Origin: an uncultured Roseovarius sp.
Lineage (GTDB): Bacteria > Pseudomonadota > Alphaproteobacteria > Rhodobacterales > Rhodobacteraceae
DNA length: 64,000 bases
Assembly (NCBI GenBank): GCA_947496175.1
Contig: CANMBU010000003.1
Span: 462,334-526,333 of the forward strand
Direction: 5' to 3'
Part shown: positions 10,365 to 30,944 of the stretch, one piece after another
Numbering within the stretch: the stretch's first letter is position 1
Layout of the letters: every line of letters starts with the position of its first letter
Made by a program: the position numbers and the translations under genes
The notes under the pieces: generated by a model
Told to the model about the DNA's origin: nothing
The model's database searches: none
The model's input: the letters and a program-made list of their open reading frames with translations, nothing else

Positions 10365-11477
10365 ATGGCGCCCAAGCGTCCCGTTGGTGCGGGCGCTATC
10401 CCGAAACAGGTAGAGAGCCCCGCACTGATCAAGCCCGCTCCCGGGCCGCTCTATGCGGCGTTGGATTTGGGAACAAACAGTTGCCGTATGCTGATTGCCC
10501 GGCCAGAGGGCGATCAGTTTAAAGTCGTGGACAGCTTCTCAAAATCAGTTCAACTGGGTGCCGGGCTTGAAAACTCAGGTAAGCTGTCGCGATCCTCAAT
10601 TTACCGCACAATTCAGGCACTTCGCGTGTGCCAGCAAAAGATAAAACGGCACAAGGTGAACCGCATGCGGCTGGTGGCAACCGAAGCCTGCCGACGCGCC
10701 AGCAATGGTGCGGCCTTCATGAAGCGGGTGCGGCGCGAAACGGGTCTTCCGCTGGAAATCATCGAACCGCAGCAAGAGGCGCAGCTGGCTGTAGTGTCCT
10801 GTGCGCCGCTGGTCAGCAAAAAGACTGAGCAGCTTTTGGTCGTGGACATTGGTGGAGGCTCGACCGAGCTTGTGTGGATTGATCTCAAGGATGTGCGTCC
10901 AAGTGAGCGCGCAGGTGCGATCATGCGTATGCATGGCGGGTTTCCGACCTGCGACGGCGAGGGCGCCATGGCGCGTGTTGTCGACTGGATCAGCGTGCCC
11001 TTGGGCGTCGCGACATTGCGCGACCAGTTTCGAGATGTGGAAGATGACGCAGCACGCTTTGCGCTGATGAGTTGGTTTTTTGAGGAAAACCTGGCGGAGT
11101 TTGCACCCTACAAAGATGAACCACCGCGCGATGGCTTTCAGATTGTGGGCACCTCCGGCACTGTAACGACCGTCGCGGCAAGCCATCTGGGTCTTAAACG
11201 CTATGACCGCAACAAGGTTGATGGGCTGCGCATGACCAGTGACGAGATCGACAAGGTGATCCGCACTTATTTGCAGATGGGGCCTGAAGGCCGCCGCAAT
11301 GACCCTCGCATTGGCCTGGATCGTCAGGCGCTCATCATGTCTGGAGCCGCCATCCTGCAAGCTTTGCTGCGGTGTTGGCCTACGGACCGTTTGTCCGTCG
11401 CAGACAGGGGTCTGCGCGAGGGCATGCTTTATGCCCAAATGGCAGCAGACGGCGTTCTGGGCGAGGGGTGTGCGTGA
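10365..11477 (+). CDS. Ppx/GppA family phosphatase
   Basis: [32 protein letters not shown]. Confidence 0.9.
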
Positions 11478-12199
11478 TGGCCAAAAAGCCGAGCGGCAAA
11501 AACACGTCCGGGCGCGGGCAGCGGGATCTGACGGTGCGGGTCAAGACCGCCAAGGGGCGTAGATCGTCCTCAACCCGCTGGCTGCAGCGGCAATTGAATG
11601 ACCCTTATGTGAAACGCGCGCAGGCCGAGGGGTATCGTGGGCGCGCGGCCTACAAAATCATGGAGCTTGACGACAAGTTCCGCTTTCTGGTGCCCGGCGC
11701 GCGGGTGGTCGATCTGGGCTGTGCACCGGGAGGCTGGTGTCAGGTGGCGGTGCCGCGTGTCAACGCGCTTGCTGAGAAAAAGAACAAAGCAGTTGGCACC
11801 ATCCTGGGCATAGACCTGCAAGAGGTTGATCCCATCCCCGGATGCGGGATCCATGTGCTTGATTTCATGGAAGACGGGGCCGATGACAAGGTCAAGGATT
11901 GGCTGGGTGGCAAGGCGGATGTCGTGATGTCAGACATGGCCGCGGCGTCTTCAGGGCACAAGCAAACCGACCACCTGCGTATCATCGCGCTTTGCGAAGC
12001 GGCCGCGTATCTGGCCTTCGACGTGTTGGACGAGGGCGGCACATTCGTGTCGAAGGTTTTGGCCGGCGGTGCGGAGGGCGAGCTTCAAAAGCTCTTGAAA
12101 CAGCGTTTTACCAAGGTCGCCAACGTCAAACCACCCGCATCCCGTGCGGACAGTTCCGAAAAATTCGTTGTGGCCACAGGGTTTCGCAGTGCGGGTTAA
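11477..12199 (+). CDS. rlmE: 23S rRNA Um2552 methyltransferase
   Basis: [40 protein letters not shown]. Confidence 0.93.
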
Positions 12200-12375: not shown

Positions 12376-12582
12376 CACACAGCTCTGCCTCAATCTGTGT
12401 GCCCCCGCCGGGGTTGATAGTGTGTTAATAGGGCAGATTTGGCCCAGCCATGGCGCGATTTCGTGACGCTATAAGGGCGGAATGTGGCAGGGCGCGACGC
12501 GGTGACATCAGGCATTTTGACGGAGTAGTTCGGAAAAATTCGCACCCGGAGCGCGCTCAAGTCGCCGGAGGCGGTAGCGCAC

Positions 12583-12596
12583 TAAAATGGCGGAGA
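12583..12596 (+). repeat. Distal att core (displaced tRNA-Ser 3' end)
   Basis: TAAAATGGCGGAGA identical to 30815-30828; followed by a degenerate GGGA..TTCGAAC T-arm copy. Confidence 0.88.
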
Positions 12597-12694
12597 AGCC
12601 GGGACTCAATTCGAACACTTTATTCGATGAGTTAGAGCGGTGGAACGCAGTCCTTGCTGAGCATAAAAACGAATTGCGGGGGCCGAGACCATGA
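12587..12694 (+). CDS. 35-codon frame giving the predicted recombinase C-terminus in the excised (attP) form
   Basis: MAEKPGLNSNTLFDELERWNAVLAEHKNELRGPRP*; same frame through the att core as the recombinase; stop overlaps the mobC ATG (ATGA). Confidence 0.6.
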   Translation: MAEKPGLNSNTLFDELERWNAVLAEHKNELRGPRP

Positions 12695-13080
12695 CACGGC
12701 ACCCTGCAAATTCACCTGAGCCGACCAAGCGTCTTGCGCCTTTTTCTCTTCGTCTGACGGTCGAAGAACGCGAACAGCTTGAACGCCAATCCGGTGGCCT
12801 TTCGCTCGGGGCTTACATCAAATCCGTCATTTTTTCAGATGACGCCCCCAAGTATCGCAAACGCCGCAAAGGTTCGACCGCAGAGCAACAACTGCTCGCC
12901 GAGATACTGGCGCGGCTTGGTCAAACGCGCACAGCCAATAACCTCAATCAGATCGCCAAGCACCTCAATCAAGGAACGCTGGTTGTGGATGAAGAATTAG
13001 AGGCTGATCTCAACCGCGCCGTGGCGGAAGTCGCCTGGATGCGCGCGCAATTGATGAACGCACTCGGGAGAAAGTCATGA
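12691..13080 (+). CDS. mobC: Relaxosome accessory protein (MobC-like, ribbon-helix-helix)
   Basis: FSLRLTVEERE RHH start; NNLNQIAKHLN MobC motif; coupled to relaxase. Confidence 0.85.
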   Translation: MTRHPANSPEPTKRLAPFSLRLTVEEREQLERQSGGLSLGAYIKSVIFSDDAPKYRKRRKGSTAEQQLLAEILARLGQTRTANNLNQIAKHLNQGTLVVDEELEADLNRAVAEVAWMRAQLMNALGRKS

Positions 13081-14351
13081 TCCTGATTGCCTCCCAACGT
13101 TCTGGTGCCCGTGATTTGGCTGATCATTTGATGAACGACATTGAGAATGATCATGTTGAACTGGCAGACCTCACAGGTTTTATGTCTGATGATCTACATG
13201 GGGCATTGGATGAAGCCTATGCCATTTCCAAGGCAACCAAGTGCCAGAAATTCCTTTTTTCAGTGTCCCTAAATCCACCCGGTGATGCTGTGATCTCCAA
13301 GGAAGAGTTTCAGGAGACGGCGGATCGCGTTGCAGAGCATTTAGGCATTCAAGATCAGCCGCGCGCACTGGTCATTCACGAGAAACAGGGCCGCCGTCAT
13401 GCGCACGTAGTGTTCTCAAGAATTGATGGTGAAAACTTAAAAGCCATTGAGCTTGGCCTCTTTAAAGCCAAGCTGCGTGATCTTTCCCGTGATCTGTTTT
13501 TGGAACATGGCTGGAGACTGCCAGAGGGATTGAGCGTCTACGGGAATAAAAACCCGCTCAACTTCACACTCGCCGAATGGCAACAGGCGCAACGCATTGG
13601 CGTTGATCCAAGAGAGATCAAACAGGCATTTCAGGATGCCTGGGAGCAATCAGATGATTTGAAGTCCTTGTCCAATGCTCTTGAGGACAAAGGGTTATTT
13701 TTGGCCAAGGGAGATCGCCGTGGATTTGTCGCTCTTGATATTGAGGGGAATATCTATGCGCTGGCGAAATGGACGGGGCTTAAAACCAAGGAGGTGAAAG
13801 AGCGGTTGGGGTCGCCTGACGCGTTGTCGTCGGTGTCTGACACACTGGTCGCGTTGAAACGCAAGAAGACCACGCAGGTTCGCGACTACATCCTGCAGGT
13901 CAAGGATCGCCACGCCAGAGAAATGCGCCCCTTCTTTGAGGAACGTGCCAGTCTCGTCACAACCCAAAGGAAAGAGCGCAGCACTCTCAAAGCAAAACAG
14001 GACGCGCGATGGATTGCAGAAACTAAAGAGAGATCAGACCGCCTCAATTCTGGTTTGCGAGGTCTCTTTGATCGTTTGACGGGCGCGCATGGCAAGATCA
14101 TCAAACAGAATGAGCGTGAAGCCTGGGCTGGTCTCAATCGCGATCAGGAACAGCGTGATACTTTGATCCTGGCGCAAATGACTGAACGCAAGGAGTTGCA
14201 GGAGCGCGCCTTAAAAACTCGCCACAAACATCGTCTTGAACGCAAACAAATGGCCCATGTTGTGCGCCACTACATGAACAACCCTGAGCACGATAACAGC
14301 CCGCGCCGTACGCGGCATCGGTCACAGGAACCACCGGGCTTTAGTCGCTAA
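13077..14351 (+). CDS. Relaxase/mobilisation nuclease (MOBP-like) with C-terminal coiled coil
   Basis: SVSLNPP motif II; VIHEKQGRRHAHVVFSR HUH motif III. Confidence 0.88.
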   Translation: MILIASQRSGARDLADHLMNDIENDHVELADLTGFMSDDLHGALDEAYAISKATKCQKFLFSVSLNPPGDAVISKEEFQETADRVAEHLGIQDQPRALVIHEKQGRRHAHVVFSRIDGENLKAIELGLFKAKLRDLSRDLFLEHGWRLPEGLSVYGNKNPLNFTLAEWQQAQRIGVDPREIKQAFQDAWEQSDDLKSLSNALEDKGLFLAKGDRRGFVALDIEGNIYALAKWTGLKTKEVKERLGSPDALSSVSDTLVALKRKKTTQVRDYILQVKDRHAREMRPFFEERASLVTTQRKERSTLKAKQDARWIAETKERSDRLNSGLRGLFDRLTGAHGKIIKQNEREAWAGLNRDQEQRDTLILAQMTERKELQERALKTRHKHRLERKQMAHVVRHYMNNPEHDNSPRRTRHRSQEPPGFSR

Positions 14352-14401
14352 TCCGCGACACACCCTCAATCCACATCATTCATATCCAATAGGAGATTGC
14401 C

Positions 14402-16219
14402 ATGTCCTGGCACATCAAAACTGCGGTCCTTGCGACCGCACTGGTAACCCTTTGTCTGTTCACATCTGATCCCGCCTTTGCAGACTTCGTCTGGCGTAAT
14501 GGTCGTTGGGTGGACAATTACACTTACAGACCCGCTCGCGATCCATTGATCTGGCTCTCATTTATGAGACTTATTCTGGTCGCAGGGTCTGCCGCCCTCG
14601 GCTTTGCGATTGGGTGGTTCTTCTCGCCCCAGGGTCATCCAGCCCGTCAAATCATACTCATTCTTCTTGGTGTTGTCGCAATGGGTGTGGTTCTCATTGA
14701 TCAAAGCGCCTTGGGATGGAGCACCGCAACCCTGATGGCTATTGTTGGTTTTTTCTGGGGTATTGGCTTCTGGCTTGGCAAGGGGCTGAAACAGGTCTTT
14801 GATACTCCAACAACCTTTGGTTCTGCCAAATGGGCAGATGCGGAGCATTTGACCCAGAAAGGTCTCTTCACCAAAACCAAAGGTCTTTTGTTGGGACTGG
14901 CCTTTGATGGCAATCTGATGTCCCGTATTTACTACTCGGGTGATCGTCACGCCCTGACCGTTGCGCCCAATCGCTCGGGCAAGGGATTTGCCCATATAAT
15001 TCCAAACCTTCTTAAATATCTTGGCTCGGTTCTGGTGATCGATCCTAAGGGTGAGAATGCCATTATCACTGCCAAGAGACGAGAAGAGATGGGCCAAAAG
15101 GTTCATCTGATTGACCCCTGGGATATTGCGGCAACGAAGTCTGGCTTTGAACCCGCCAGGATTAATCCTCTTGACTGGATTACGATGGATGATCCTGACG
15201 CGCCAGAGAACGCCAAGCTTCTAACAGACGCCCTGGTGCAATCCAAACCCAAGAGTGATCCGTTCTGGCTGGAAGAGGCCAAAGCTCTTTTGCAGGGCTT
15301 GATCCTGCTCGTTGCCTTGGACGAAACCTACGAGGGACGGCGCAATCTGGGAACTGTCCGTGATCTTATGCTGTTGGATGGGAAAGAGATGAAGGCGCTG
15401 TTTCAGTATATGGCCAACTCCGCTCATCCTTTGATCGTCTCCACAGGATCGCGTTCCTTGCAAAAGGAAGAAAAGCTGATGGCCAATGTTTTGGCCTCGG
15501 TTCAGGCGGAAACCCATATGCTGGACAGTCATCGTGTTCGTGATGCGCTGTCGGCGTCTGACTTCAGCTTTGAAGACCTCAAGAAAGACCCAATGTCGGT
15601 GTTTCTGATCCTGCCAGCAGATCGCCTGAACTCCTTCAATGCATTTCTGCGTTTGATGGTCCAACAGGCGATTACTGTGAATGCCCGCAACATCACGGAC
15701 AAACCAGAAAAGCCTGTGCTTTTCATTCTTGATGAAATGCCAGCCTTGGGACGTCTGTCGATGCTGGAACAGGCCTATGGGCTGATGGCGGGTTTTGGTA
15801 TGCAGTTCTGGGGCATCGTCCAGGACTTGAGCCAGCTTCGCCGTGTTTATGGGGAAGATTATGAGAGCTTCATCGCCAATTGCGGGATGGTGTCCTACTT
15901 TGGCTCCCCTGACAAACGAACGGCGGAATATTTCTCTTCCCTTTGCGGGGTCACTACTGTGCCCAATTTGAGCACGGCGGTTGCATCGGCGGTCAGTCAT
16001 AATTTTGGTTCCGGCGGTGGCGGCAGTGAATCCACCACCAGTACGGACACACGCTCGGCAACACAGCGCAAACTGGCCTATCCCGATGAATTGATGCGGA
16101 TGCATCAAGACCAGCAACTCATCTTCATTGAGAACACTGACCCGATCCTCTCAGAGAAGATCAAGTGGTTTGAAGACCCGGAGCTCTCCAAGCTCGGTGT
16201 AGATACCCACAAGTCTTAG
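14402..16219 (+). CDS. VirD4/TraG-type type IV coupling protein
   Basis: N-terminal TM segments; TFGSAKWA; Walker A APNRSGKG; VIDPKGEN; Walker B FILDEMPALG; QDLSQL. Confidence 0.9.
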   Translation: MSWHIKTAVLATALVTLCLFTSDPAFADFVWRNGRWVDNYTYRPARDPLIWLSFMRLILVAGSAALGFAIGWFFSPQGHPARQIILILLGVVAMGVVLIDQSALGWSTATLMAIVGFFWGIGFWLGKGLKQVFDTPTTFGSAKWADAEHLTQKGLFTKTKGLLLGLAFDGNLMSRIYYSGDRHALTVAPNRSGKGFAHIIPNLLKYLGSVLVIDPKGENAIITAKRREEMGQKVHLIDPWDIAATKSGFEPARINPLDWITMDDPDAPENAKLLTDALVQSKPKSDPFWLEEAKALLQGLILLVALDETYEGRRNLGTVRDLMLLDGKEMKALFQYMANSAHPLIVSTGSRSLQKEEKLMANVLASVQAETHMLDSHRVRDALSASDFSFEDLKKDPMSVFLILPADRLNSFNAFLRLMVQQAITVNARNITDKPEKPVLFILDEMPALGRLSMLEQAYGLMAGFGMQFWGIVQDLSQLRRVYGEDYESFIANCGMVSYFGSPDKRTAEYFSSLCGVTTVPNLSTAVASAVSHNFGSGGGGSESTTSTDTRSATQRKLAYPDELMRMHQDQQLIFIENTDPILSEKIKWFEDPELSKLGVDTHKS

Positions 16220-16292
16220 TCCAGCACATCGCTCATGCTCCTCCCATTCTGGGGGGAGCACCTTTCCCACTTTCATATGAGGAGGTCAGACA

Positions 16293-17201
16293 ATGGCCGA
16301 TCCCAAAGACCCGTTTAATCGTATCACCAATCCTGACGGCACGCCCGTGCGCGACAAGGACAACGCGCATCCTGTTTTAAAACCCGTCAATCAAAACCTG
16401 CGTCCAGCCCAAAACCTGGCCCCAGGCGGATCAATGGGCATTCGGCAACGTAAGTCCAGTGACCTTGTCCCGCAGCGCCCATCAGTTGAGATTATCAACA
16501 GAATTGATACTGATACGCATCGCTATATTGATGGTCGCATCACAACCATGCCTGACATGCGTGTCATGGCGATGATCAATGACAAGCCCTCGCCAGTTGG
16601 GATTGAAGAGGGGCATGTTGATCAGCTCGTCCTCATGCAAATGGACAAGACCGTCGCGCGCTATAATCGTGGTTGGGAAATTGACCCGCAAACGCCTCAG
16701 CACAAACAGGCGATACAATTTTTTAGAGAAGAGTTTGATCCCTCCTACGAAAAGCAAAGATCAAATGATCTGGTCCCAAAACAGCAACCAGAAAAGGAAC
16801 GTATCAAGTTCACAAAATCACCAGAACGTTCTGAAGAAAGCACCCGTTCAGGTGCGGCTCCTGCGTTTCAGAATGTGTCCAGTGAGCTTTCTTGTGAACC
16901 CGTTCGCAATACAAATTGGGTCAAAGGCAAAATCTTGTCCATGCCAGGCTACACCTTCCATGCCAAAGTGTTTGATTTGCCCTCTTCATACGGGATTGAC
17001 GATGGGCGGATTTCCAAACTGCAAGTTCTGAAACACGGCCAGGAAGTGGTCAACTATGAACGAGGCTGGGATCAAAAACCCGATACGCCCGAACAGGTTG
17101 AAGCTGTACATCGCATTAGACGTGGTCTTGGTGACATGCCTGAGAAAGAGTTTCAGGCGTACCAGCACATGCCCGACAAAGGGCATGGGTTTGAGCGGTA
17201 G
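16293..17201 (+). CDS. Hypothetical protein with a duplicated ~65-aa domain
   Basis: GGAGG RBS; two homologous units ending ..GIEEGHVDQL..YNRGW and ..GIDDGRISKL..YERGW. Confidence 0.8.
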   Translation: MADPKDPFNRITNPDGTPVRDKDNAHPVLKPVNQNLRPAQNLAPGGSMGIRQRKSSDLVPQRPSVEIINRIDTDTHRYIDGRITTMPDMRVMAMINDKPSPVGIEEGHVDQLVLMQMDKTVARYNRGWEIDPQTPQHKQAIQFFREEFDPSYEKQRSNDLVPKQQPEKERIKFTKSPERSEESTRSGAAPAFQNVSSELSCEPVRNTNWVKGKILSMPGYTFHAKVFDLPSSYGIDDGRISKLQVLKHGQEVVNYERGWDQKPDTPEQVEAVHRIRRGLGDMPEKEFQAYQHMPDKGHGFER

Positions 17202-17326
17202 GTTGCTCTAAAACTACTTGATTGTATTTTCGTCAAAGCGCGATGCAAAGACTTAGGTACAACTATGCAGAGCCTTGACCAGCTTGAATCGAACCAGAGT
17301 GGAACACAAAATGAGAAAGAATTCAG

Positions 17327-17575
17327 TCAGATACTTCTTCTCGAGAAAGGTTGCATTTTGACGTTTCGGGAAACTACAAAATCATTTCCAACCTTTTCCT
17401 TTAACTCAGCGAGACGGCCCTCAGCGACTTCAACATCTGCACAGCGACCTCTGTCAAAAACTTTCACAAGCTTAACAAAGTCCACGTCAGCCAATACTTT
17501 ACCATAGTCTAATTGCCCGCCAGAGTGGTTCATCGACATACGTTTCGCCGCTCGCATACTCAATGTACAAATCAT
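17327..17575 (-). CDS. Small protein directly downstream of the S8 peptidase (possible I9/prodomain-like partner)
   Basis: 82-aa ORF, same strand, 30 bp after the S8 stop; alternating beta/alpha pattern. Confidence 0.55.
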   Translation of the reverse strand: MICTLSMRAAKRMSMNHSGGQLDYGKVLADVDFVKLVKVFDRGRCADVEVAEGRLAELKEKVGNDFVVSRNVKMQPFSRRSI

Positions 17576-17605
17576 AGCTCGAACCTACCACATTGATTAG
17601 AAAGG

Positions 17606-18820
17606 TTAAATAGGAACATTTTCCTTTATTTGTGGCAATTTAATGATGCCAAACCCTTGTTTGTCGTGGTGGATACCTGTGTCGTCACATAAATCTTTCA
17701 ATGTTTCTTTAACATAGTCAACTCTCTGTTGCAAAGAATTGTCTTGTTTTTCAAAGTCTTTCTTGCACAACACTTGTGATAAAATTGCTGTCACAATTGG
17801 AGCAGCAAAAGAAGTACCATCCATCTCAAAAATCGATCCATCTGAATAAGCAATGTCAACACCGATACCGGGAGCTACAGCGTCCAAGCCTGGCCCAAAG
17901 CAGGTTCCATGGTGAAAGAAAACAGATTGGCCGTCAGACGTTCGCCCTATATTTCCAACATCTTCCAGGGATTCCACCTGACTGATATTGTAGTCTGTTC
18001 CAACTGGTGCTGCGTCCACCAACCCTATGCTTCCCACTCCTACCACCGTAGGCAACTCCGCTGGCATTGCCAATTGGCGGACATTTTCGTTTCCAGCAGC
18101 AACCACAACGGCACAACCATTCAACAAAGCAAACTCAATTTCTTCTTCAAAACGCTCCTTCGCTTCAACGTGCTCTAATTTGGTATCGTCAAAATGAAAG
18201 CCGCTTGAAATGTTGATCACGTCAACACCATAGTCTTGAACTAGGGCCGAGATACCTGAACACGCTGTCTTGGTATCTAAATACTCACCGGAAGCATCTG
18301 CAGCATCCCACAGGAATATCTCATAGTCAGAAACGCCATCTAGAACGCTCGAAACGACCGTGGCAACATGAAGCCCGTGAAAATTGACGGGTGAATTTTC
18401 ACTGGGCAAATTCTCGTCTAATCCAACTACGTGCAAAGGATTTGCATCAGGTGAGCGAGGCACGCCGATGTCTATCACTCCGATCCTAGTCCTTTTATCC
18501 TTACCAAAAGCAACACCCCCGCAAGTCAAGTTTCTCCACCAACTGGATTCCCCGTTCGCTTTAATTTCCGGACAATAAATTTTTTGTTCCCTTTTCGAGT
18601 ATTCCAGACTCTTTGTAACACGCCAGTGCCCATCACATGGGATAACACGAACTTTGTCCGGGTAAATTCCCTCCAAAACTGGAACTTCAACGCACCCGTC
18701 CTCCATCGTTGGAAATAGTCGATCGTGCACGCGAGCCCCATAGTGAAACTCTAATAACGCACCAATCGGTTGATCTACGGGACCAAGAACTTGTACCTTC
18801 TTACCACTCATGTTTTGCAT
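17606..18820 (-). CDS. S8 (subtilase) serine peptidase, no signal peptide
   Basis: Catalytic motifs IGVIDIG, HGLHVA, AAGN, GTSFAAP. Confidence 0.88.
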   Translation of the reverse strand: MQNMSGKKVQVLGPVDQPIGALLEFHYGARVHDRLFPTMEDGCVEVPVLEGIYPDKVRVIPCDGHWRVTKSLEYSKREQKIYCPEIKANGESSWWRNLTCGGVAFGKDKRTRIGVIDIGVPRSPDANPLHVVGLDENLPSENSPVNFHGLHVATVVSSVLDGVSDYEIFLWDAADASGEYLDTKTACSGISALVQDYGVDVINISSGFHFDDTKLEHVEAKERFEEEIEFALLNGCAVVVAAGNENVRQLAMPAELPTVVGVGSIGLVDAAPVGTDYNISQVESLEDVGNIGRTSDGQSVFFHHGTCFGPGLDAVAPGIGVDIAYSDGSIFEMDGTSFAAPIVTAILSQVLCKKDFEKQDNSLQQRVDYVKETLKDLCDDTGIHHDKQGFGIIKLPQIKENVPI

Positions 18821-18837
18821 AACCTTTGGGAATCATT

Positions 18838-19197
18838 ATGGACTTTGAAAATTTAACAGAAGATCAACTTCGCGCTCTAGAAGAATTAGGGGAAGAATTG
18901 GAAAAAGTTTCCTGGCAGCCTGAAACTATTCCGATGAAGCCGTATGGATTGGGGAAAAAGATCAGTAATGCGAAACTGCTCGCGATAAACTACGTCAATG
19001 AAAACCGTGAGGAAATGCAAAAGCATGTTTGCAAAGACAATGCGGTAAAGATTGAGATACAAGCTGCCGGCGCCAGTACAGCAACAGTCGCTGACGCCTT
19101 TCAGGCCATGGCAGGTGCACCAATACCAGTTTGGAATCTAGCAAATGTCGTATGTATGTTAGGTCTCGGTAAATTTTGCCAATGGAAGGCAAAGTAA
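18838..19197 (+). CDS. Hypothetical protein divergent from the S8 peptidase
   Basis: 119-aa ORF; acidic N-terminus; small-residue/hydrophobic C-terminus (..VVCMLGLGKFC). Confidence 0.7.
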   Translation: MDFENLTEDQLRALEELGEELEKVSWQPETIPMKPYGLGKKISNAKLLAINYVNENREEMQKHVCKDNAVKIEIQAAGASTATVADAFQAMAGAPIPVWNLANVVCMLGLGKFCQWKAK

Positions 19198-19237
19198 ACT
19201 AGGAACGATGTTTTTTCTGCATTCTACATTGAGGATT

Positions 19238-19858
19238 CTAAACCACCGCCACCTTGTTTACCGCCCGTATGATCGTTTGCGGTGACAACTCTAACTCTTC
19301 TGCCAACTCATCGACAGACGCCATCCCCGAATGCAGTCTTTCCTTTAGGATCGGCACCACCTCCGGCGGAATAGCCCTGGGCCTGCCAATATGCACACCC
19401 CTGGCACGGGCGGCTTCCATCCCTGCCTTGGTGCGTTCGCGGATTTGCTCGCGCTCAAACTCTGCAAACACGGCCAATTGACCATATAGCAATCGTCCAA
19501 TGGATGTGGTGGTGTCGATCCTTTGGGTGAGGGCTATGAAGTCCACGCCATTCTCGCGCAGATCTTCGAGAAGTTGTAGGAGGTGCAGCACAGATCGGCT
19601 GAGACGATCCAGTTTCCACACTACCAGCGTGTCGCCGGAACCAAGCTCTCCTAGGAGTGTTTCGAGCGAGCATCGATCTTTGATAGCGCCTGAGACGCCC
19701 AAGTCACCATAGATGGTATCGCACCCTGCCTCTTTGAGCGCATCCACCTGTAGAGCCTCAGATTGGTCAGCGTCCGACACGCGGACATAACCGATTTTGC
19801 GCCCTTTTGGTCTAAGCTCTTGTTTGGACTCTGTGTTTCTCTGTTGAGGTTTGTTCAT
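19238..19858 (-). CDS. Small serine recombinase (Hin/Pin-type invertase/resolvase)
   Basis: IGYVRVS..Q catalytic Ser, LVVWKLDRLSRS, IDTTT..GRL, ERT.AGM.AAR..G..GRP, C-terminal HTH. Confidence 0.93.
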   Translation of the reverse strand: MNKPQQRNTESKQELRPKGRKIGYVRVSDADQSEALQVDALKEAGCDTIYGDLGVSGAIKDRCSLETLLGELGSGDTLVVWKLDRLSRSVLHLLQLLEDLRENGVDFIALTQRIDTTTSIGRLLYGQLAVFAEFEREQIRERTKAGMEAARARGVHIGRPRAIPPEVVPILKERLHSGMASVDELAEELELSPQTIIRAVNKVAVV

Positions 19859-19915
19859 TGGCTCAGTGTGCCACTTGAGTGGCTTCGTACAAGCGGAATT
19901 CATGGCATTTTCTCC

Positions 19916-20060
19916 TTGTCAAAAGGGGTCCCTTTGCGAAGCCGCTGAATCCGAGGTTTTGCGCGATCTCATTGATCCGAGATTTCTGTGGATAAACGGG
20001 GATTTGGTGCGTTTGCCCCGCCGCGTGGTAAGAGTTATCTAAAGGGACCCCTTTTGATGG
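19916..20060. repeat. Two inverted 26-bp hix-like recombination sites enclosing ~120 bp
   Basis: TTGTCAAAAGGG-GT-CCCTTTGCGAAG (19916-19941) and TTATCTAAAGGG-AC-CCCTTTTGATGG (20035-20060); perfect 17-bp inverted repeat 19919-19935/20041-20057. Confidence 0.75.
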
Positions 20061-20093
20061 GTGATTGGTTGCGAATGAAGACCGCATCATAGC

Positions 20094-20981
20094 TTGCCAA
20101 AGGGAGACCTCATGTCGTTCAAGTTACTATGCCAAACCGAACGTTTGTCGGTTCTTACTCTTGTTACTTGTCTTTTAATTCCTGCCACCGCCAATAGAAC
20201 CGAAGCACTTAGTGACCTGAGTGAACTCTGGCCTGCTCCCCTTTCGGTCGAAAGTAGCTTTGAGGGACTCGGCATTGATATCAAAGGCATCGCGATGACC
20301 ATGTCGATGAAAGAGGCGCAATCAGTTCATGGCGGTGATTTCTCGAATGCAATATGGCGGTTTCGCAATCAAAACCGCCTCTCCAAGGAGAAGGTAACCA
20401 GACAGGATGTCGGCAACCTGAAAGTCAAATTCGATCAACCTGGTGCCTACGATGACCTCCGCACATTAGGATCGCACTGGCACACAGGTAATCGCATGAT
20501 CCGTATGACAAGGGATGTCGAATTCTATGACGTCGACCGACAACCTTCGGCACAGAACTTCGTGGCATCTGTGATCGAAAAATATGGTACGCCTTCTAAC
20601 GGTCCATATCGTACCACGGGTAAATATCGCTATACGGTCAAACCGCATGAGGCGCGTCGATGGATGTTTGACAATGCGCAGCTCTCAACGACCTGCGAAG
20701 TCTACGATCTTCCCGTTGATCTCAAGGACGCAACACGGCTCAAGGAGGACAACCTGGAAGCCATCATTGCTGATCTTGAAACGCCTGAGGCTTGTGATGG
20801 ATACATGGAAATTTTGCATGAAATCACACCAGCATCCACTGTCAGCAAATATCGTATTCAAATCACCGATGTTCGATTGCTGATGATTGATGCACTCAAT
20901 GAACGGCGCGTCCAGGCAAATATGGAAGCCTACTTTGAAAGGGCTTTACAATCTGGCAACAAAAACACTCCGGACTTATGA
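20094..20981 (+). CDS. Secreted hypothetical protein
   Basis: 295-aa ORF with signal-like N-terminus (SVLTLVTCLLIPATA); likely start nearer 20112. Confidence 0.75.
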   Translation: MPKGDLMSFKLLCQTERLSVLTLVTCLLIPATANRTEALSDLSELWPAPLSVESSFEGLGIDIKGIAMTMSMKEAQSVHGGDFSNAIWRFRNQNRLSKEKVTRQDVGNLKVKFDQPGAYDDLRTLGSHWHTGNRMIRMTRDVEFYDVDRQPSAQNFVASVIEKYGTPSNGPYRTTGKYRYTVKPHEARRWMFDNAQLSTTCEVYDLPVDLKDATRLKEDNLEAIIADLETPEACDGYMEILHEITPASTVSKYRIQITDVRLLMIDALNERRVQANMEAYFERALQSGNKNTPDL

Positions 20982-21304
20982 AGAGCGTCTCGGAAGAAAA
21001 AAGTAAGTGGGGCGTGACGACCCCTCCGTCTCTTTAATTTCCCACTAACAGGGTTGCTCCTGCAACCCTCTGCCCTTCGGCGAGAAATGGGGGTGCAAGG
21101 GTCAAGATCAATCGATGGCGGGCGCAGGTATCTTCGATGCCTAGCCTCGGGAGACCGGCTATTGATCTTGATCCCGCGCCGGGGGCGGTAGCCCTAAGAA
21201 TCAACTCAAGCATGCAGAAGTCATTTGATTTCCCGCAAAGAAGCAATAGGCTAGCCTTTAGTGCAACGCCTGCGCGCTATTGGCTTTTTATTTGGGGGAA
21301 TTGA

Positions 21305-22222
21305 ATGTTGAGGCTTCGAAAAACCAACGGTTTGAAAATCATTACAGCAATAATTTTTGCTGCGCTTTCAGCGCCTTCTCTGGCATTAGCTATGGAATGT
21401 AACCTGGACACGAGCTTCACACATAAGACCAAACACCATGGAAAACGTCCTGTTTACACAGATAAAAACTCTGTGTTTTTCACGGCACCAATGGCAGTGA
21501 ATACTGACGGTGCACCAATCTCGTACCACCCCGATGACCCATGGGGAAACACTGGTAAAGCAATTAACACGATTTGCAATGGAGCCAATGTGATCCTGCC
21601 AAACGGAAAAAAGATCAGGTATGATAAATGTACCAAACTTATTGAAGGTTTTAAGGAAGCAAAGGCATCCGGTTGGGAAAACAAAGCCACAGCAAGAATG
21701 GACTTCTATGGTATAGCCTCCTCGGGCTTTACTCCCTGCATAAATGACAAAGAGCCATACGAAGGATATTTTGTATCCACTACCTCGGTCATTGCAGACA
21801 AGTCGAAAGCGGTGTGCGATCAAGATAGATATCTTAATTCGATCGAAATACCGTTCGCAATTTATCCCGGTGCGAAAAAATTTACTTCACACGGCGTCGG
21901 AAAAAGAGACGTCGTTGTCTATTTCAATCCAGAAAACAGTGCGATCGAATTCGGGATAATAGGAGACCGTGGTCCAAAATGGGGACTTGCAGAAGGGTCA
22001 ATCGCTTTTGCCCAGTCTCTGAGACAAACCGACAGTCTTCCGACGTCGCGTAAAGACACATATAATTTTGGTGTTAGCAAGGTTCATGGGCTGATTTTGC
22101 CAAACGCTAGTTTAGAACCACCTTACACTGCCGAAAACGTAAGAACCCGAGCCAGAAACGAGTTTAACAACTGGGGAGGAATGGACCGCCTAAATGCATG
22201 CATTAAGCAGCATGGCGGTTAA
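21305..22222 (+). CDS. Secreted GH75 (chitosanase)-like glycoside hydrolase
   Basis: Signal peptide; AVNTDG, YLNSIEIPF and GIIGDRGP..AEGSIAFA resemble GH75 catalytic motifs. Confidence 0.6.
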   Translation: MLRLRKTNGLKIITAIIFAALSAPSLALAMECNLDTSFTHKTKHHGKRPVYTDKNSVFFTAPMAVNTDGAPISYHPDDPWGNTGKAINTICNGANVILPNGKKIRYDKCTKLIEGFKEAKASGWENKATARMDFYGIASSGFTPCINDKEPYEGYFVSTTSVIADKSKAVCDQDRYLNSIEIPFAIYPGAKKFTSHGVGKRDVVVYFNPENSAIEFGIIGDRGPKWGLAEGSIAFAQSLRQTDSLPTSRKDTYNFGVSKVHGLILPNASLEPPYTAENVRTRARNEFNNWGGMDRLNACIKQHGG

Positions 22223-22261
22223 ATTCCAAAGTAGCGCGGCTCATGTATGGGACATTTCTCA

Positions 22262-22960
22262 ATGAAGTTTTTAGTACTGTCTTTTTTTGTTTTCTTGGCG
22301 ATACCGTCTTCTGCAAAGGCTCAAGGTCTAAGAGATTTTATCAAAGAAACTATCAACGAAGCCGCTGGACCTCCTGGAAGGAGTTTTGGGGACAAGTCAC
22401 ATTTGATGGTTGTGAAAGCGGATGGGGGCGTCACATTTATCTTTCTTTGCAGCGCGGGCAAAGAGAATGGTGCGGGCGACAAATTGGTGAATGCAATTTT
22501 TGATGGACTGAACCAAGCGACCGCTGGTGTTTCTGTCTTTTTCAGATCTTGGATACGGAGAGAGATCGAAAAGGGTGTGGTAAACGAGGGCGATGCGTTC
22601 TGTGGTGTCTTTGCCAAAAAAACTGGTGGTAAGAGCAAAGCCAGGAATGTACGAGACGGCAGCATCTATACAACCTCGTGGCGAAATGGCGAGAAGGTTC
22701 AATCGGTAACTGATGAAAGGGCCTGTAAAAAAGTGCACAAGAGATACTTTTGTTTCGAAGTCGCCGAAGGGCCTTCGGATGACGGTGAAATCGACGGTGT
22801 AAGTGGATGCTTTGAAGCTAAAGTCGATGGGCGGCTGGTTTCCTTTTCGTTTGGCCGAGGAGAGACTATTCCGGTCGAAACACGAAGTACTTTCGGCCCT
22901 AAAGACTCAAAATCTTCAGAGGGTTGCGTGGTTCGAAAATTGGGCGTTGAAAAGAATTAG
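22262..22960 (+). CDS. Secreted Cys-containing hypothetical protein
   Basis: Signal peptide MKFLVLSFFVFLAIPSSAKA; six Cys; follows the GH75-like gene. Confidence 0.7.
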   Translation: MKFLVLSFFVFLAIPSSAKAQGLRDFIKETINEAAGPPGRSFGDKSHLMVVKADGGVTFIFLCSAGKENGAGDKLVNAIFDGLNQATAGVSVFFRSWIRREIEKGVVNEGDAFCGVFAKKTGGKSKARNVRDGSIYTTSWRNGEKVQSVTDERACKKVHKRYFCFEVAEGPSDDGEIDGVSGCFEAKVDGRLVSFSFGRGETIPVETRSTFGPKDSKSSEGCVVRKLGVEKN

Positions 22961-23297
22961 TTGAGAACAAAAAGCAATATTGCAGAAAGCGCTGCCAAGG
23001 CCGAATTTTGAGATTTGATGAATACTAAGGGTGCTCGAGAAGTCGCGATAACCTCTTGGTCGGGTCCAGCAATGAAATGCAGGCGGCATCCAACCCGCGC
23101 AGGGATGGTCTCCATGAAATGGTCAGGATTGCATAAGGGAAGGAACGCCCTTTGCTCGATGGGTGTGGGGAGAGAGAAATCTCCCACGAGGGATCAAACA
23201 CCGATATGTTTGTGTGGTCAAATCAGGCTCAACGCCTGTTCCTGACCACTTGCTTTGGGGGATAGAACGGGGGAGCGCAGCAACCCCCTTCTCAAGT

Positions 23298-23324
23298 GGG
23301 GCGGTACTACCGCCCCCATCTTGC
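23298..23324 (+). other. Candidate origin of transfer (MOBP-type nic site)
   Basis: 9-bp inverted repeat GGGGCGGTA-c-TACCGCCCC immediately followed by CATCTTG|C, like RP4 TATCCTG|C and R64 CATCCTG|T. Confidence 0.55.
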
Positions 23325-23481
23325 GATGGACGCTATCAACATCATGCTACTCCTTTAGCATCTCAATTGCGGGTCAACCCATGTCAATTTCACCAACACC
23401 GTATCGTGGATAAGCTACAATCTTAGATTGACTCGCAGCATTGCTTCTCATCAGTCTGGTTAGAAGGAAAAGGCAACGATT

Positions 23482-24789
23482 ATGAGATTAGAAGAAATTA
23501 GCATTGGCGCTTTGTCGGTAAATCGCGCGAATGATCGTCACGGTGAATTGGAAAACGAAACGGCAGCAATTGCCTGGCTTTTCAATACACGCGAAACTCA
23601 CATGAAAAACCTCGCCAAAGACATCGTTGCGGAGGGGCGAATTTTTGAGCCACCACTCGTCTCGCCCGAAGGATCAAGTTATTTGGTCTTCGATGGAAAC
23701 CGTCGTGTCACCTGTTTAAAGCTACTGGAAAAACCTTCCCGTGCGCCAACAACGACTCTGCAAGAATACTTTGCGAACTTAAAAGCTGATTGGCAGGGAG
23801 ACTTTCCAAAGAAAATCCTATGCCAGGTTGAAGACGACAGAGACCTCATCGACGATATTCTTTACAGAAGGCACACTGGAACGCTGAATGGTGTTGGCCA
23901 GACAACCTGGGACGACCGAATGAAAGACAACTTTGTCGCTCGTTCGGGTAAGAAAACAGGCTTCAACATCGCTGATGAAATCGAACAACGATTGGAAGCA
24001 GCAAACCTGTTACCATCTACCAAAATCCCACGGTCGAACCTGAACCGCCTTCTGTCGTCAGAAGCAATTAGAAACAGGTTCGGATTTACGGCAAAAAACA
24101 AAGTCTTCGACTACACGCATAATCCTGATGTTGTATTAAAAACGCTTGCTGCTCTCGCTGATGATTTTGCAGCTGGACGGGTAGTTCTTGGCGACATTTG
24201 GGACAATGAAAACAAGTTGAAATATGTAGACGGATTAGAAGACCAAGGGTTACTTCCTACGGACGAAGACATCATCGATAACGAGAGCGGCACGGGCAAA
24301 CCAAGCCCAAAACCGAAGCCCAAACCAAAACCGAAGCCCAAACCAAAACCCACGAAACGAACGACTTTGATCCCGCAAAAAGAATTCGGAATTTTATGGA
24401 CGGGCAAACAACACCGCATGCAGGCGATCTGGGAAGAACTACAGTTTCACCTAAACCCCGAAAAGCATCCGAACGCGGTTTCCGTTCTGTTTCGAGTGCT
24501 CTTGGAGTTAGCCGCTGACCATTACGCAAGTGAACATGGCGTGGCGTTACAACAAAACGACAAACTGGCACGAAGGGTCGAAAAGGTCGGTGATGCGTTG
24601 TTTAGCCAAGGCAAAATCGACAAGAAGCAGAGAACAGCAACAAAGAAGTTTGGTCAGCTAGACCAACTGGTATCAGCAGATACGCTTAACCGATATGTCC
24701 ATTCACCCAACTTCGCGCCTTCGGCCAAACACCTAGAAGCGCTTTGGGATACCATGGCCGATCTGATCGTCGCCTGCCTCAAAGGTTAG
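23482..24789 (+). CDS. ParB/Srx-like N-terminal domain, PK linker and HEPN-like C-terminal domain
   Basis: EPPLV..VFDGNRRVTCL; (PK)n linker; LFRVLLEL...LNRYVH helical C-terminus. Confidence 0.65.
   Translation: MRLEEISIGALSVNRANDRHGELENETAAIAWLFNTRETHMKNLAKDIVAEGRIFEPPLVSPEGSSYLVFDGNRRVTCLKLLEKPSRAPTTTLQEYFANLKADWQGDFPKKILCQVEDDRDLIDDILYRRHTGTLNGVGQTTWDDRMKDNFVARSGKKTGFNIADEIEQRLEAANLLPSTKIPRSNLNRLLSSEAIRNRFGFTAKNKVFDYTHNPDVVLKTLAALADDFAAGRVVLGDIWDNENKLKYVDGLEDQGLLPTDEDIIDNESGTGKPSPKPKPKPKPKPKPKPTKRTTLIPQKEFGILWTGKQHRMQAIWEELQFHLNPEKHPNAVSVLFRVLLELAADHYASEHGVALQQNDKLARRVEKVGDALFSQGKIDKKQRTATKKFGQLDQLVSADTLNRYVHSPNFAPSAKHLEALWDTMADLIVACLKG
24308..24351 (+). repeat. 18-bp tandem repeat encoding the PKPKPK linker
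   Basis: CAAAACCGAAGCCCAAAC x2 plus a partial unit. Confidence 0.8.
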
Positions 24790-24814
24790 CATTTCAAAGA
24801 TTTTGAAGGTCTGG

Positions 24815-25108
24815 TCAAAACAGGCTACCCTGACGCGAAGCCTCAACATAGGCCTTCCATTGCTTTGATTGCGCTTCTTTGTTGAGCCAATCGGTCACAA
24901 GGGTGATCACTTCGTCGATTTCAAGAACGGGATCCATCGGTCCAAAGTAATGCGATCTGTAACCTGTGTCTGAGATGGGAATAGGTTGGTCATCCTCAGC
25001 ACAAATTGCGACGTGATCTATAACGCCATACTGCCTTGGTGTGTAAGAGAGCCGAATGGATCGGCCCTCCCATGTGATGTTGATGTCAATCGTTTCGCCG
25101 TTACGCAT
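24815..25108 (-). CDS. Small hypothetical protein ending in a clamp-binding-like QGSLF motif
   Basis: AGGAG RBS; start overlaps the upstream gene's stop; C-terminus ..RQGSLF. Confidence 0.7.
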   Translation of the reverse strand: MRNGETIDINITWEGRSIRLSYTPRQYGVIDHVAICAEDDQPIPISDTGYRSHYFGPMDPVLEIDEVITLVTDWLNKEAQSKQWKAYVEASRQGSLF

Positions 25109-25337
25109 CGCTCTGCTCCTCAGTCTCAACAGTGATTGGAAAGAGGTAGATGTCATCTGTGATGATCTGCGTGCCTGAGGTTCGGATACAAATGCCTCCG
25201 TCCTTGGCACGGTTCCAGGCGACACCGATGCGTTCCAGCCGTGCCTTGCGGCCATAGCCTTTGGGTGTTTTGACGATCCAGTCGGGATCATTGTTTGCCT
25301 CGGGTGAGTGTTGTGAAGTTTGACGAGTTTCTGTCAT
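25101..25337 (-). CDS. Small hypothetical mobile-element protein
   Basis: GAAAGGAA RBS; ERIGVAWNR..GGI.IR beta-rich core. Confidence 0.7.
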   Translation of the reverse strand: MTETRQTSQHSPEANNDPDWIVKTPKGYGRKARLERIGVAWNRAKDGGICIRTSGTQIITDDIYLFPITVETEEQSDA

Positions 25338-25667
25338 GGCTTTTCCTTTCTGTTATTCCGCCAGACCATCTGGCCGATGTCTCGGGAAAAAGCGGACCAG
25401 CTCTCACACATCATGCGCTACACGGTTCGAAGCGAATGCGAAGAAGTGGTGCGGGCCGCGCATTGATGGGATGAGGGATGATCTGCTTCCCATAGAACAA
25501 ACGGCTGATGATCTGGTGTGATTAAGGCAGCAAGGAACGCGTCAGGAAATCAATCCAAACAGTGCCTCACGCCAGCGGAATTATGGTCAGGTCATTTGGT
25601 AAAAAGGACCCTGCTTTGAGGTTGCATCGCAGAGGGTGTGTTAACTGAAGTAGCGCAAGGCTAATCA

Positions 25668-26123: not shown

Positions 26124-26210
26124 CTCGAATTCTCCTAACCAATTAGAAAAGATGATCGTACTTAAATGATCCCAATAAACCTACGAGTCCTAGCTCAAAG
26201 CTTGACCATT

Positions 26211-27312: not shown

Positions 27313-27466
27313 AAAGTTGCTCGTGTTTATCTTTTGTTCTATTTTATCTACCTTGGGACGAGTTGGCAACGCCGTTTCGGCATCTAGCGTGTCCAAGAAG
27401 ACTAATTGGATGCGCAGTGAACCGGTGTAATAAGGAATTGAGCTTCTTCCACTTAGGATCATTCGC

Positions 27467-28450: not shown

Positions 28451-28483
28451 CAACATTACACATCTACAGTAATCTGCTTTCTG

Positions 28484-28512: not shown

Positions 28513-28551
28513 GTTAATCACTGCAATTGATAAACCTGAAAGGTTACAAAA

Positions 28552-28994: not shown

Positions 28995-29312
28995 ATGAAA
29001 GACAGAGAAATGAACAACAACGTGCAAAGACCAAAGCTAGAAATTGATTGGGATGCTTATGGGGAGATGATGGAAGACTCCGATATGTCTGAAGAAGACA
29101 AACGGGTTCTCATCGAAACACTTTGGAACATTGTTGTCGCCTTTGTTGATCTCGGATTTGATCTGCATCCTGAGGAGAATGATTGTGGAGAACCCCGTTC
29201 TCTCAGTCCATTTCCGATCAAAGATATAGTAGAATTGAGTAATCGAAGAAAAAGAAAGAAACGAGATAGTGCGCGCTCCGATGATGCGCAGAAAGGACAA
29301 GGTCATGAGTAA
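28995..29312 (+). CDS. Acidic hypothetical protein coupled to the serine recombinase
   Basis: 105-aa ORF (IETLWNIVVAFVDLGF); overlaps the recombinase ATG. Confidence 0.75.
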   Translation: MKDREMNNNVQRPKLEIDWDAYGEMMEDSDMSEEDKRVLIETLWNIVVAFVDLGFDLHPEENDCGEPRSLSPFPIKDIVELSNRRKRKKRDSARSDDAQKGQGHE

Positions 29313-30944
29313 AGACGTTAACCAAAAAGCAGTTGTCTATTGCCGTGTATCGTCTGCTGCGCAAATGACCAAAGGCGACGGTTTGGCCTCCCAGGAAAGT
29401 CGGTGTAAGGAATATGCCCGCTATCGCGGTTATGACGTCAAAAAGGTCTTTCAGGATAACATGTCTGGGGGTGATCTTGATCGCCCTGCCATGAGCGCGA
29501 TGGTTCAGTTTATTCGCGAACAGGATGATACGGTTGTCGTCATCATTGATGATATTAATCGGTTTGCACGTGATGTGGTGGGGCACTGGCATTTACGCGC
29601 CATGGTCGCTGAGGCCGGGGGCAAATTGGAAAGCCCCACATTGGAGTTCAAGGAAGACAGCGACTCCATTCTGGTGGAGAATCTTCTCGCTTCTGTCTCA
29701 CAGCATCAGCGTCAGAAGAATGGCGAGCAAACCAAGAACAGAATGCGCGGGCGCGCCCTCAACGGCTATTGGACCTTCTCCGCGCCTCCTGGATACAAGT
29801 TCGAGCGCGTGTCTGGTCATGGCAAACTGTTGGTTCGGGATGAACCCTTGGCCTCGGTTATTCAGGAGGCGCTCGAAGGGTTTGCCACGGGACGATTTGA
29901 AACGCAGGCAGAGGTCAAACGCTTCCTTGAAAACGAACCTGCCTTTCCAAAAGATTCACCCAATGGGACAATCCGTTTTGAGAAGATCATTCGGTTGATG
30001 TCGCGTGTCGTTTATTCGGGTCATATTGAATACCCGAATTGGGACGTCTCCCTGCGCAAGGGCCATCATGAACCCATCATCTCCTTGGAGACCTATGAGG
30101 CCATCCAAAGAAAGATCAAAGAGGGATCACGCGCGCCGTTTCGCAAGGATATCAATGCAGACTTCCCTTTGCGTGGATTTATCGCCTGCGACGACTGCGG
30201 CACGCCTCTGACGGCCTGTTGGTCTACCAGCAAGTCAGGCAAGAAACATCCTTACTATCTGTGCCACAACAGGGCTGTGACAGCTATCGCAAGTCCATTC
30301 GACGTGATGTGGTGGAAGAGGAATTCCAGTCCCTCTTGCGTTCTCTACAGCCTTCAGAGGGACTATTCGCCATTGCAAAGCGGATGTTCAAAGACGCGTG
30401 GGGACAACGACAGGCGCAAGCGGATGTAGGCCGGGCCATTCTTCGAAAAGATCGCGATGCAGTAGATCGCAAGATTGAAGGTCTTTTGGACCGCATTGTG
30501 GATACTGATAACACTTCGCTCGTCGCCACTTACGAAAAGCGATTGGAAAAACTGGATCGCGAGAAACTGGTTCTGGATGAAAAACTCGAAAACCATGGCC
30601 CAAAACCGGGCACCTTCGAGGAATTGTTCGAACACCCACTAGATTTTCTCTCAAGCCCCTGGAAACTATGGGAAAGTGGGTCTCTCAACCTGCGCCGTAC
30701 CGTCCTCAAACTGGCTTTTGCAGACCGTATGACCTACTCCCGAAAAGAGGGACTTCGAACACCAAAAACCACTACACCTTTCAAGGCGTTAGAGGGTTTT
30801 TGTGGTGATGGATGTAAAATGGCGGAGAGACAGGGATTCGAACCCTGGGTGGGCTTGCACCCACAACGGTTTTCGAGACCGCCCCGTTCGACCACTCCGG
30901 CACCTCTCCGCGGGGGTCTGGAGCGTGCGTGTAATCGGCTTTGA
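29305..30944 (+). pseudogene. Large serine recombinase (integrase), frameshifted at ~30271
   Basis: AVVYCRVSS..Q catalytic Ser; IDDINRFAR; recombinase domain; Zn ribbon CDDC..YLC; second half continues in another frame (GCDSYRKSIRR..coiled coil) and reads through the att core. Confidence 0.88.
30820..30909 (-). tRNA. tRNA-Ser(CGA)
   Basis: GGAGAGG/TCTCTCC acceptor stem, CT-CGA-AA anticodon loop, long variable arm, GGTTCGAATCC, encoded CCA. Confidence 0.95.

Follow-up and report, generated by a model that had tools for sequence, protein, structure and literature searches.

What happens to a site-specific recombinase if the attachment site of its element lies within the 3' end of its own gene? 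This question is raised by a locus in the window analysed here, i.e. the whole stretch of 64,000 nt from an uncultured Roseovarius sp., in which a large serine recombinase (LSR) gene runs out of a genomic island into a tRNA-Ser gene, and the opposite island end opens with a short reading frame leading into mobC. The answer developed below, which we consider quite probable on the basis of comparative sequence data, is that attP lies within the 3' end of the recombinase gene and that a conserved C-terminal tail and its link to mobC would exist only in the excised circle.

The region 12583-30828 is an integrative mobilizable element (IME) in the 3' end of tRNA-Ser(cga), placed there by the LSR (Table 1). 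The window sequence and genome comparison delimit the island as the 18.2 kb between the att repeats, and its GC content is 0.43-0.52 compared to 0.59 in the left flank. In a congeneric genome (G411, locus L058) the left flank joins tRNA-Ser(cga) directly with nothing between, showing that the segment from 12.6 to 30.8 kb is a true insertion. The assignment as an IME is based on its being att-bounded at a specific site, on the empty site in the relative and on the presence of its own MobC, relaxase and type IV coupling protein (T4CP). No VirB-type family, as expected for mating-pore genes, was present among 26 island ORFs, including part of the small ones, that were scanned against Pfam. The small acidic gene orf105 is conserved, a homologue carrying the motif IETLWNIxxAFVDLGF being located directly upstream of int in 71 of the best 80 family loci and also in L001. 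Neither orf105 nor the tail peptide matched a Pfam family, and we regard orf105 as a candidate accessory or directionality factor or regulator.

Table 1. Features of the island and its borders in window coordinates.
Feature	Position	Strand	Remark
Terminator-like hairpin with T-run, host flank	12541..12555	-	flank partly conserved beside the G411 empty site
attL core TAAAATGGCGGAGA	12583..12596		contains TGG (12588-12590), antisense to the CCA end of the tRNA
Tail ORF (35 codons), MAEKPGLNSNTLFDELERWNAVLAEHKNELRGPRP and stop	ATG 12587 .. TGA 12694	+	in frame with the left core
TTCGAAC in P' arm, copy of the tRNA T-loop motif	12610..12616	+	encodes Ser-Asn of the tail
Conserved amphipathic helix motif LFDELERWNAVL (LFxxLxxWxxxL)	12620..12655	+	beyond the expected attP half-site
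mobC (MobC/NikA-like relaxosome accessory gene)	12691..13080	+	ATG overlaps tail TGA
Relaxase (MobA/VirD2-like)	13077..14351	+	4-nt overlap with mobC stop
Type IV coupling protein, T4CP (VirD4/TraG-like)	14402..16219	+	
S8 peptidase (cargo)	17606-18820	-	
Small resolvase/invertase (cargo)	19238-19903	-	
TIR protein (cargo)	26368-27468	-	
orf105, conserved small acidic gene	28995..29312	+	stop overlaps integrase start by 8 nt
Large serine recombinase	right island end	+	pointing outward into the tRNA
Integrase N-terminal part (resolvase catalytic domain, recombinase domain, start of zinc ribbon)	29305..30273	+	
GGG run, reading frame break	30272..30274	+	one added G gives ..CHNRGCDSYRK..
Integrase C-terminal part (rest of zinc ribbon, coiled coil, C-terminal region)	30273..30827	+	ends ..GDGCKMAE at the core
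attR core TAAAATGGCGGAGA	30815..30828		
tRNA-Ser(cga), integration target (attB' side)	30820..30909	-	CCA end within the right repeat
Integrated-state C-terminus, 38 codons antisense through tRNA-Ser (RQGFEPW..ACNRL and stop)	30828..30944	+	

The island borders are formed by an exact 14-nt direct repeat, TAAAATGGCGGAGA, at 12583-12596 and 30815-30828. By a rough estimate chance alone would produce a 14-nt repeat about once per 23 kb, and it is the position of the repeat together with the empty site in G411 that render it significant. The blocks of identity between paired att ends, here and in the further elements described below, comprise 6-14 bp. Sequence comparison places the crossover within TGG(C/T)GC, the antisense of CCA and the top of the acceptor stem, and it indicates that the P' arm doubles as coding sequence, encompassing a copy of the T-loop motif (Ser-Asn), then the amphipathic helix and then the overlap with the mobC start. 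The T-loop copy TTCGAAC starts 22 nt past the T of TGG in the P' arm but 17 nt past it in the tRNA (B' arm). Written as (T/C)T(C/T)GAAC, the motif has its GAAC at an offset of 25 from the T of TGG in P' and of 20 in B' in 11/11 pairs. For serine integrases a zinc-ribbon-domain (ZD) motif was reported at positions 16-24 in attP compared to 11-19 in attB (Rutherford 2013). The exact outward shift of 5 bp in all 11 pairs matches this attP versus attB rule and is thus a signature of an LSR site. The tail codons for Ser-Asn (TCG AAC) are made up of the same bases as the putative ZD motif. In the left arm a mirror of TTCGAAC was sought, and only a weak TTTG(C/T)(G/A)G-like similarity was found among three P arms.

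Some details of the borders deserve mention in their own right. Between flank and TGG the bases read TAAAA in the window (12583-12587) and TTTAGG in the empty site (L058, 1563-1568); the five bases left of TGG within the 14-nt repeat may simply differ between species or may be a copy of element sequence. The hairpin in the host flank is probably the original tRNA-Ser terminator, parted from its tRNA by the island. A second terminator-like hairpin with a T-run (30774-30789, minus strand) is located within the integrase codons for TPKTTTPFKA, about 30 nt beyond the point where tRNA-Ser ends (3'), and the element may supply a replacement tRNA terminator by dual coding. Transcriptional read-through from the tRNA would run antisense to int.

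The enzyme itself is an LSR by domain content. PF00239 is matched at residues 9-155 (E 5e-24; motif VVYCRVSSAAQ), corresponding to a resolvase-type catalytic domain with a serine nucleophile, and Pfam matches to PF07508 (recombinase domain) and PF13408 (zinc ribbon) are present as well. A structure model of the homologue P0031 has SPbeta, Bxb1, phiC31 and LI integrases as best fold matches (E down to 4e-13) and shows long paired helices at 275-353. A sequence-only reading of this locus had taken 29305-30828 as one recombinase reading frame, which we cannot maintain. The catalytic ORF starting at 29305 terminates at 30429, and the frame reading KMAE at the core is a different one; the switch occurs at the GGG at 30272-30274, with ..HPYYLCHNR / ..YYLCHNR in one frame and GCDSYRKSIRRD.. 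in the other. All homologues read CHxKGCxSYRKSIRRD uninterrupted in a single frame, and one extra G at 30272-30274 would restore the integrase frame. Programmed frameshifting at 30272 was considered and ruled out, as a slippery heptamer is missing and the homologues are single-frame throughout; the break is thus either a mutation or a homopolymer assembly error. The gene is the sole int copy in the genome. As the sequence stands, an intact enzyme would not be obtained from the circle either, and this copy is probably immobile unless the frameshift is an assembly error.

The remaining statements of that reading on the two island ends were confirmed. The att core is read as K-M-A-E in the C-terminal frame of the recombinase (ORF 30219-30944; ..GDGCKMAERQGFEPW..ACNRL), and across the right core this frame runs on antisense through the tRNA (..MAERQGFEPWVGLHPQRFSRPPRSTTPAPLRGGLERACNRL) to a stop at 30942-30944. 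At the left end the core opens the tail ORF (12587-12694), the TGA of which (12692-12694) overlaps the ATG of mobC (12691-12693). After excision the codons from 12596 on (KPGLNSNTLFDELERWNAVLAEHKNELRGPRP and stop) would continue the ..GDGCKMAE of the integrase.

Is this tail a conserved part of the protein? Joining 29305-30828 to the left tail and aligning the product to homologues had been proposed as a check; the join needs the extra G, and the tail does match homologues. For the search the two int frames and the left tail were joined in silico and residues 300-540 were used as query, resulting in 947 homologues with Rhodobacteraceae as the best source-named matches. Among the best 120 of these, 118 end in antisense-tRNA read-through (..GFEPW.., ..GFEPPTP, ..RLELPT..) or are shortened near or soon after the core, and the length of the integrated-state read-through is very variable, ranging from ~3 to >100 residues depending on tRNA and flank. 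The other two of the best 120, P0031 (ending ..KCEMARMEGEASNALFEELERWNHVLSAEENRL..) and P0039 (ending ..KSKMARLEGQTSNRLFETLEEWNTYLKDN..), share the motif with SNTLFDELERWNAVL of the window. With the tail alone (residues 496-540) a homologue search returned no candidate with shared words.

Starting from mobC instead, we searched 401 same-family genomes, obtained a match in 58 and retrieved 30 loci. In 27 of the 30 the 32-60 codons upstream encode (E)(S/T)SNxLF(E/D)xLxxW(N/E)xxL.. (in short SNxLFxxLxxWxxxL) in frame with an xM(A/V) core. Together with the fusion of int and tail in P0031, P0039 and L106 this disposes of the possibility that homologues end before the core and have no LFDELxxWN-like tail. 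The three mobC loci devoid of the conserved tail (L016, L017, L021), two of which end in ..GLESRP and a stop before mobC, resembling ..LRGPRP and a stop, may represent a variant lineage or decayed left ends. In the P0031 model the tail forms a helix (residues 438-455) of moderate confidence (pLDDT 62-68, with the tail present in 2 of 68 aligned sequences), preceded by a disordered stretch of ~20 residues matching the att-encoded codons; no confident docking of the tail helix was observed in this model.

If int and tail belong to one gene, both ends of each integrated element should agree in frame. We found the tail in frame with int in 11/11 complete elements, i.e. this one and ten further ones, with both ends on the same contig and in the same orientation; these 11 pairs share ancestry and do not represent 11 independent events. 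In the ten further elements the int 3' end runs antisense into genes for tRNA-Arg(acg), tRNA-Arg(ccg), tRNA-Thr(tgt) (two), tRNA-Thr(ggt) (four), tRNA-Leu(gag) and tRNA-Leu(cag), and the shared core comprises 6-11 bp with TGG(C/T)GC in every one. All 11 elements taken together thus occupy six tRNA gene types (Ser, Arg(acg), Arg(ccg), Thr(tgt), Thr(ggt) and Leu). In elements of the G354 type the core is read as AAT GGT GCT instead of xxA TGG TGC, and this register is shifted in int and tail alike, which argues that the fusion of int and tail is itself under selection. The left end in G180 that appears to be out of frame belongs to an int-less remnant beside a complete element with its own in-frame left end. 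At this locus (G180:C1:396416-425109; L009, L052, L053, L062) two adjacent elements share one tRNA-Thr(ggt), the int-less remnant carrying a G354-type tail; the pair appears to have arisen by accretion or by tandem insertion with subsequent decay.

The family comprises at least 571 loci in the species-representative genome collection, distributed among Alphaproteobacteria and a few metagenome-assembled genomes labelled Beta- or Gammaproteobacteria, Bacteroidetes or Verrucomicrobiaceae. Among the best 80 of these loci, 57 have an int that reads into a tRNA. The targets among these 80 loci (L065-L144) are tRNA-Arg(acg) in 24, tRNA-Arg(ccg) in 15, four tRNA-Ser isoacceptors in three each, tRNA-Arg(tct) in two, and tRNA-Arg(cct), tRNA-Glu, tRNA-Thr and tRNA-Leu in one each. 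Several of these loci end in partial tRNA-like read-through with no full tRNA, possibly as leftovers of earlier insertions. Elements with an apparently unbroken int frame of full length are present in the cultured relatives Psychromarinibacter halotolerans MCCC 1K03203 (G288/L081) and Roseobacter sp. HKCCA0434 (G283/L122), the predicted joint being ..KCEM|A/V.. ahead of the SNxLF tail.

The joined form was also found as contiguous DNA. Three independent sources contain int, tail and mobC in one piece (L001-L003/L065; L004, a TARA contig; L106, a Kordiimonas assembly). L106 is the third such case besides the contigs of P0031 and P0039, in both of which the recombinase, the tail and a NikA/MobC-like gene are contiguous with an ATGA stop/start overlap. 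The copies of attP form located in genomes, three in number, carry a dead int, due to in-frame TAG or truncation, and no intact tailed gene was seen in isolates; this fits the view that chromosomal junctions persist only with an inactive enzyme. The in-frame stops, one in L001 (9752-11425; Oceaniradius stylonematis-type) and two in L106 (1273-2898), are all TAG while the true stops are TGA. They probably reflect inactivation of trapped junctions, and the common choice of TAG in L001 and L106 may be chance. Another locus, L019 (G178:C12:63209-66586), contains a fossil attP-type junction in which ~114 int 3' codons are fused in frame to the tail, with mobC and relaxase following and no tRNA nearby. 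A tblastn search of the plasmid collection, in which the C-terminal 253 residues encoded by the circle served as query, gave six weak matches, none extending into the tail, and there is no free plasmid form on record.

Could the tail be conserved as DNA rather than as protein, i.e. as attP arm, as ribosome-binding or regulatory region of mobC or as oriT, with the recombinase effectively ending at the core? The codons bear on this directly. The first ~10 codons past the core are indeed constrained as DNA, the core-adjacent ones being near fixed (GTG 14/14, GCG 8/8, TCG 15/17, AAC 24/26), and the tail end overlaps the mobC start. However, the LF..L..W block begins 32 nt from TGG and thus past the ~25-bp LSR half-site, and here five to six different codons occur at each of the three conserved Leu positions and Phe is encoded by TTC in 14 and by TTT in 13 cases, with the Trp invariant. 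This free synonymous variation with the amino acids kept points to selection acting on the tail protein; moreover, the frame stays open over its whole length in the 27 loci, and its register covaries with that of int in the G354-type elements. The codon pattern hence suggests conservation as att arm, i.e. as DNA, for the beginning of the tail and as protein for the helix motif, and conservation of the whole tail as DNA only appears extremely unlikely to us. We judge it very unlikely, too, that the tail is a separate peptide of ~35 amino acids made from the core ATG or GTG in both states as a leader coupled to mobC. A start codon is indeed available in the core (ATG at 12587), as it is in most relatives in the form of ATG or GTG, and the stop overlaps the mobC start, but the attL of G354/G180-type elements (..SGALAE..) has no start codon at the core, and the upstream DNA is unrelated host sequence in each element so that no conserved ribosome-binding site or promoter is possible. 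A separate peptide gives no reason for the frame agreement between int and tail, including the register covariation, and the fused ORF is present in contiguous DNA.

A different objection concerns this genome rather than the family: the arrangement may be a relic here, the element being defective and the swap of C-termini having no present consequence. We lean slightly towards this reading, given that the frameshift at 30272-30274 splits the only int of the genome and that other trapped copies also carry nonsense mutations. It is compatible with the family-level mechanism. Against it speak two possibilities, namely misassembly of a homopolymer as the source of the break and mobilization of the element in trans by a related integrase. 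As far as gene structure is concerned, the earlier claim that only the circle encodes the native integrase has good support, but in this frameshifted copy the circle would not encode it intact either.

The preferred reading, i.e. attP within the recombinase gene, extends to the transfer genes. An overlap between tail ORF and mobC start is found in 27/27 loci, as ATGA in 14 and over 17-20 nt in 13, and in the window the overlaps amount to 8 nt for orf105/int, 4 nt for tail/mobC and 4 nt for mobC/relaxase. That orf105, int, mobC, relaxase and T4CP would form one tightly packed same-strand row only in the circle or at a tandem junction, as had been proposed for int to T4CP, is well supported as gene structure. 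In the integrated state mobC is located at the extreme left edge of the island, 95 nt from host DNA and with no conserved upstream sequence, and no sigma-70-like promoter was found between 11800 and 13200. Upstream, a host rlmE-like gene (FtsJ family; 11372-12199) points toward mobC, and no plus-strand terminator was detected, making read-through of the host gene from upstream of attL into mobC possible. The gene order suggests that mobC probably relies on transcripts and ribosomes that come from int through the joint. With no sigma-70-like site found but the host FtsJ gene pointing the same way, integration may plausibly silence the transfer genes.

These data support a model according to which integration would swap the last 32 residues of the integrase for variable antisense-tRNA read-through and would strand mobC at the left edge behind host DNA. 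Full-length recombinase would be encoded only by the excised circle or a tandem junction, and only post-excision would transcription and translation entering mobC from int become available. As an integrated element would make only the tail-less form and yet the family has spread to many tRNA genes, excision should not require the tail. We infer from this that the tail serves a step specific to the circle, which could be integration, the control of integration direction or contact with the relaxosome. One elaboration, which we put forward as doubtful, is that the tethered C-terminal helix acts as a built-in directionality module. The circle-encoded full-length enzyme would then be restricted to integration, for instance by a tail that fills or covers the hinge between zinc ribbon and coiled coil where a directionality factor acts, and the tail-less enzyme of the integrated element would respond to such a factor, perhaps orf105, and excise. 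If true, whether the element is integrated or free would be written into the primary structure of its recombinase.

Integrases or other genes harbouring their own attP are not without precedent. SSV1 and the mycobacteriophage BPs repressor, cited in the sequence-only reading, do fit, and a closer precedent is DsiB, the serine integrase of Dehalococcoides ssrA islands, the gene of which overlaps attL with its stop outside the island (McMurdie 2011, PMC3146451). The authors of that study raised the possibility that full function of the gene is confined to the circle (PMC3146451), and this remark is the closest precedent to our account. In both systems the 3' ends of an LSR gene and of a small RNA gene meet at the att site, the LSR gene overlapping it. 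In contrast to the tRNA targeted here, the DsiB target is tmRNA, and the DsiB extension was reported to be divergent in length and sequence whereas the present tail is conserved, under protein-level selection and coupled to mobC. The DsiB junction has no mobC/relaxase/T4CP operon, and DsiB has a proposed partner in a second small recombinase, DsiA. Integrases of the SSV1 type, termed 'suicidal' and exclusive to archaea according to a review (PMC8371274), resemble the present system in that attP lies inside the integrase gene, integration alters the product and tRNAs are targeted (PMC8371274). There, however, a tyrosine enzyme is split into two inactive halves; here a serine enzyme loses a tail of 32 residues. 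In BPs-type mycobacteriophages attP is located in the repressor gene, giving integration-dependent immunity (PMC9262239, citing Broussard 2013). They share with the present family an attP in coding sequence at a tRNA and a protein C-terminus swapped by integration, upon which BPs behaviour changes (PMC9262239). In BPs it is the repressor, losing a degradation tag, and not the integrase that is changed, and the BPs integrase is of tyrosine type (PMC9262239). In the same review, serine-integrase mycobacteriophages are described as not using tRNA genes (PMC9262239). Throughout the literature consulted, tRNA targeting is treated as a hallmark of tyrosine integrases. A review of IMEs presents serine-recombinase IMEs as Firmicute elements integrating within genes, and a Mesorhizobium survey counted a few serine-recombinase IMEs and gave no further detail. 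A description of such an integrase tail swap was not found in the literature consulted.

Circularization-dependent expression is known for the Tn916 transfer genes and for ICEclc with its Pcirc promoter. State-dependent int promoters are described for ICEKp1 (PMC13023037). As in Tn916, ICEclc and ICEKp1, end joining would place the genes of one end under signals of the other, giving post-excision expression, which for the present family is read from the gene arrangement. Those systems act on transcription only, whereas here the junction is itself part of an ORF, so that joining would also alter a protein and bring its stop into overlap with the start of the next gene. Regarding the putative directionality module, engineered integrase-RDF fusions exist for phiC31 gp3 and SPbeta (PMC5737554; PMC11722253; 10.1101/2025.05.02.651858). 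They show that a short helical module linked flexibly to the integrase C-terminus can set direction, a single amphipathic RDF helix being the key in SPbeta (PMC11722253, 10.1101/2025.05.02.651858). Unlike the natural tail these fusions are artificial, and any likeness to the tail would lie in the architecture. If the directionality module were real, it would be a natural counterpart of such fusions.

Large serine integrases are prized genome-engineering tools for their one-way action, and how direction is set is an active structural question. For this use the annotation poses a problem, as 118 of the 120 best database entries are devoid of the native tail and cloning from annotation would give the wrong protein. 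The family is also unusual in its target, being a serine integrase family using the tRNA CCA end and T-loop, with the T-loop motif serving as ZD motif; if true, a tRNA-mimicking arm would explain the retargeting of many tRNA genes via the universal CCA end and T-loop. Switches with attP inside a gene are known, and a conserved, selected, mobC-coupled serine integrase tail adds to them and does not constitute a new category. As a summary, a widespread natural family appears to encode two integrase isoforms according to integration state, providing a testable case of state-dependent control, and the way the integrase stop overlaps the mobC start suggests a coupling of conjugative mobilization to the recombination state.
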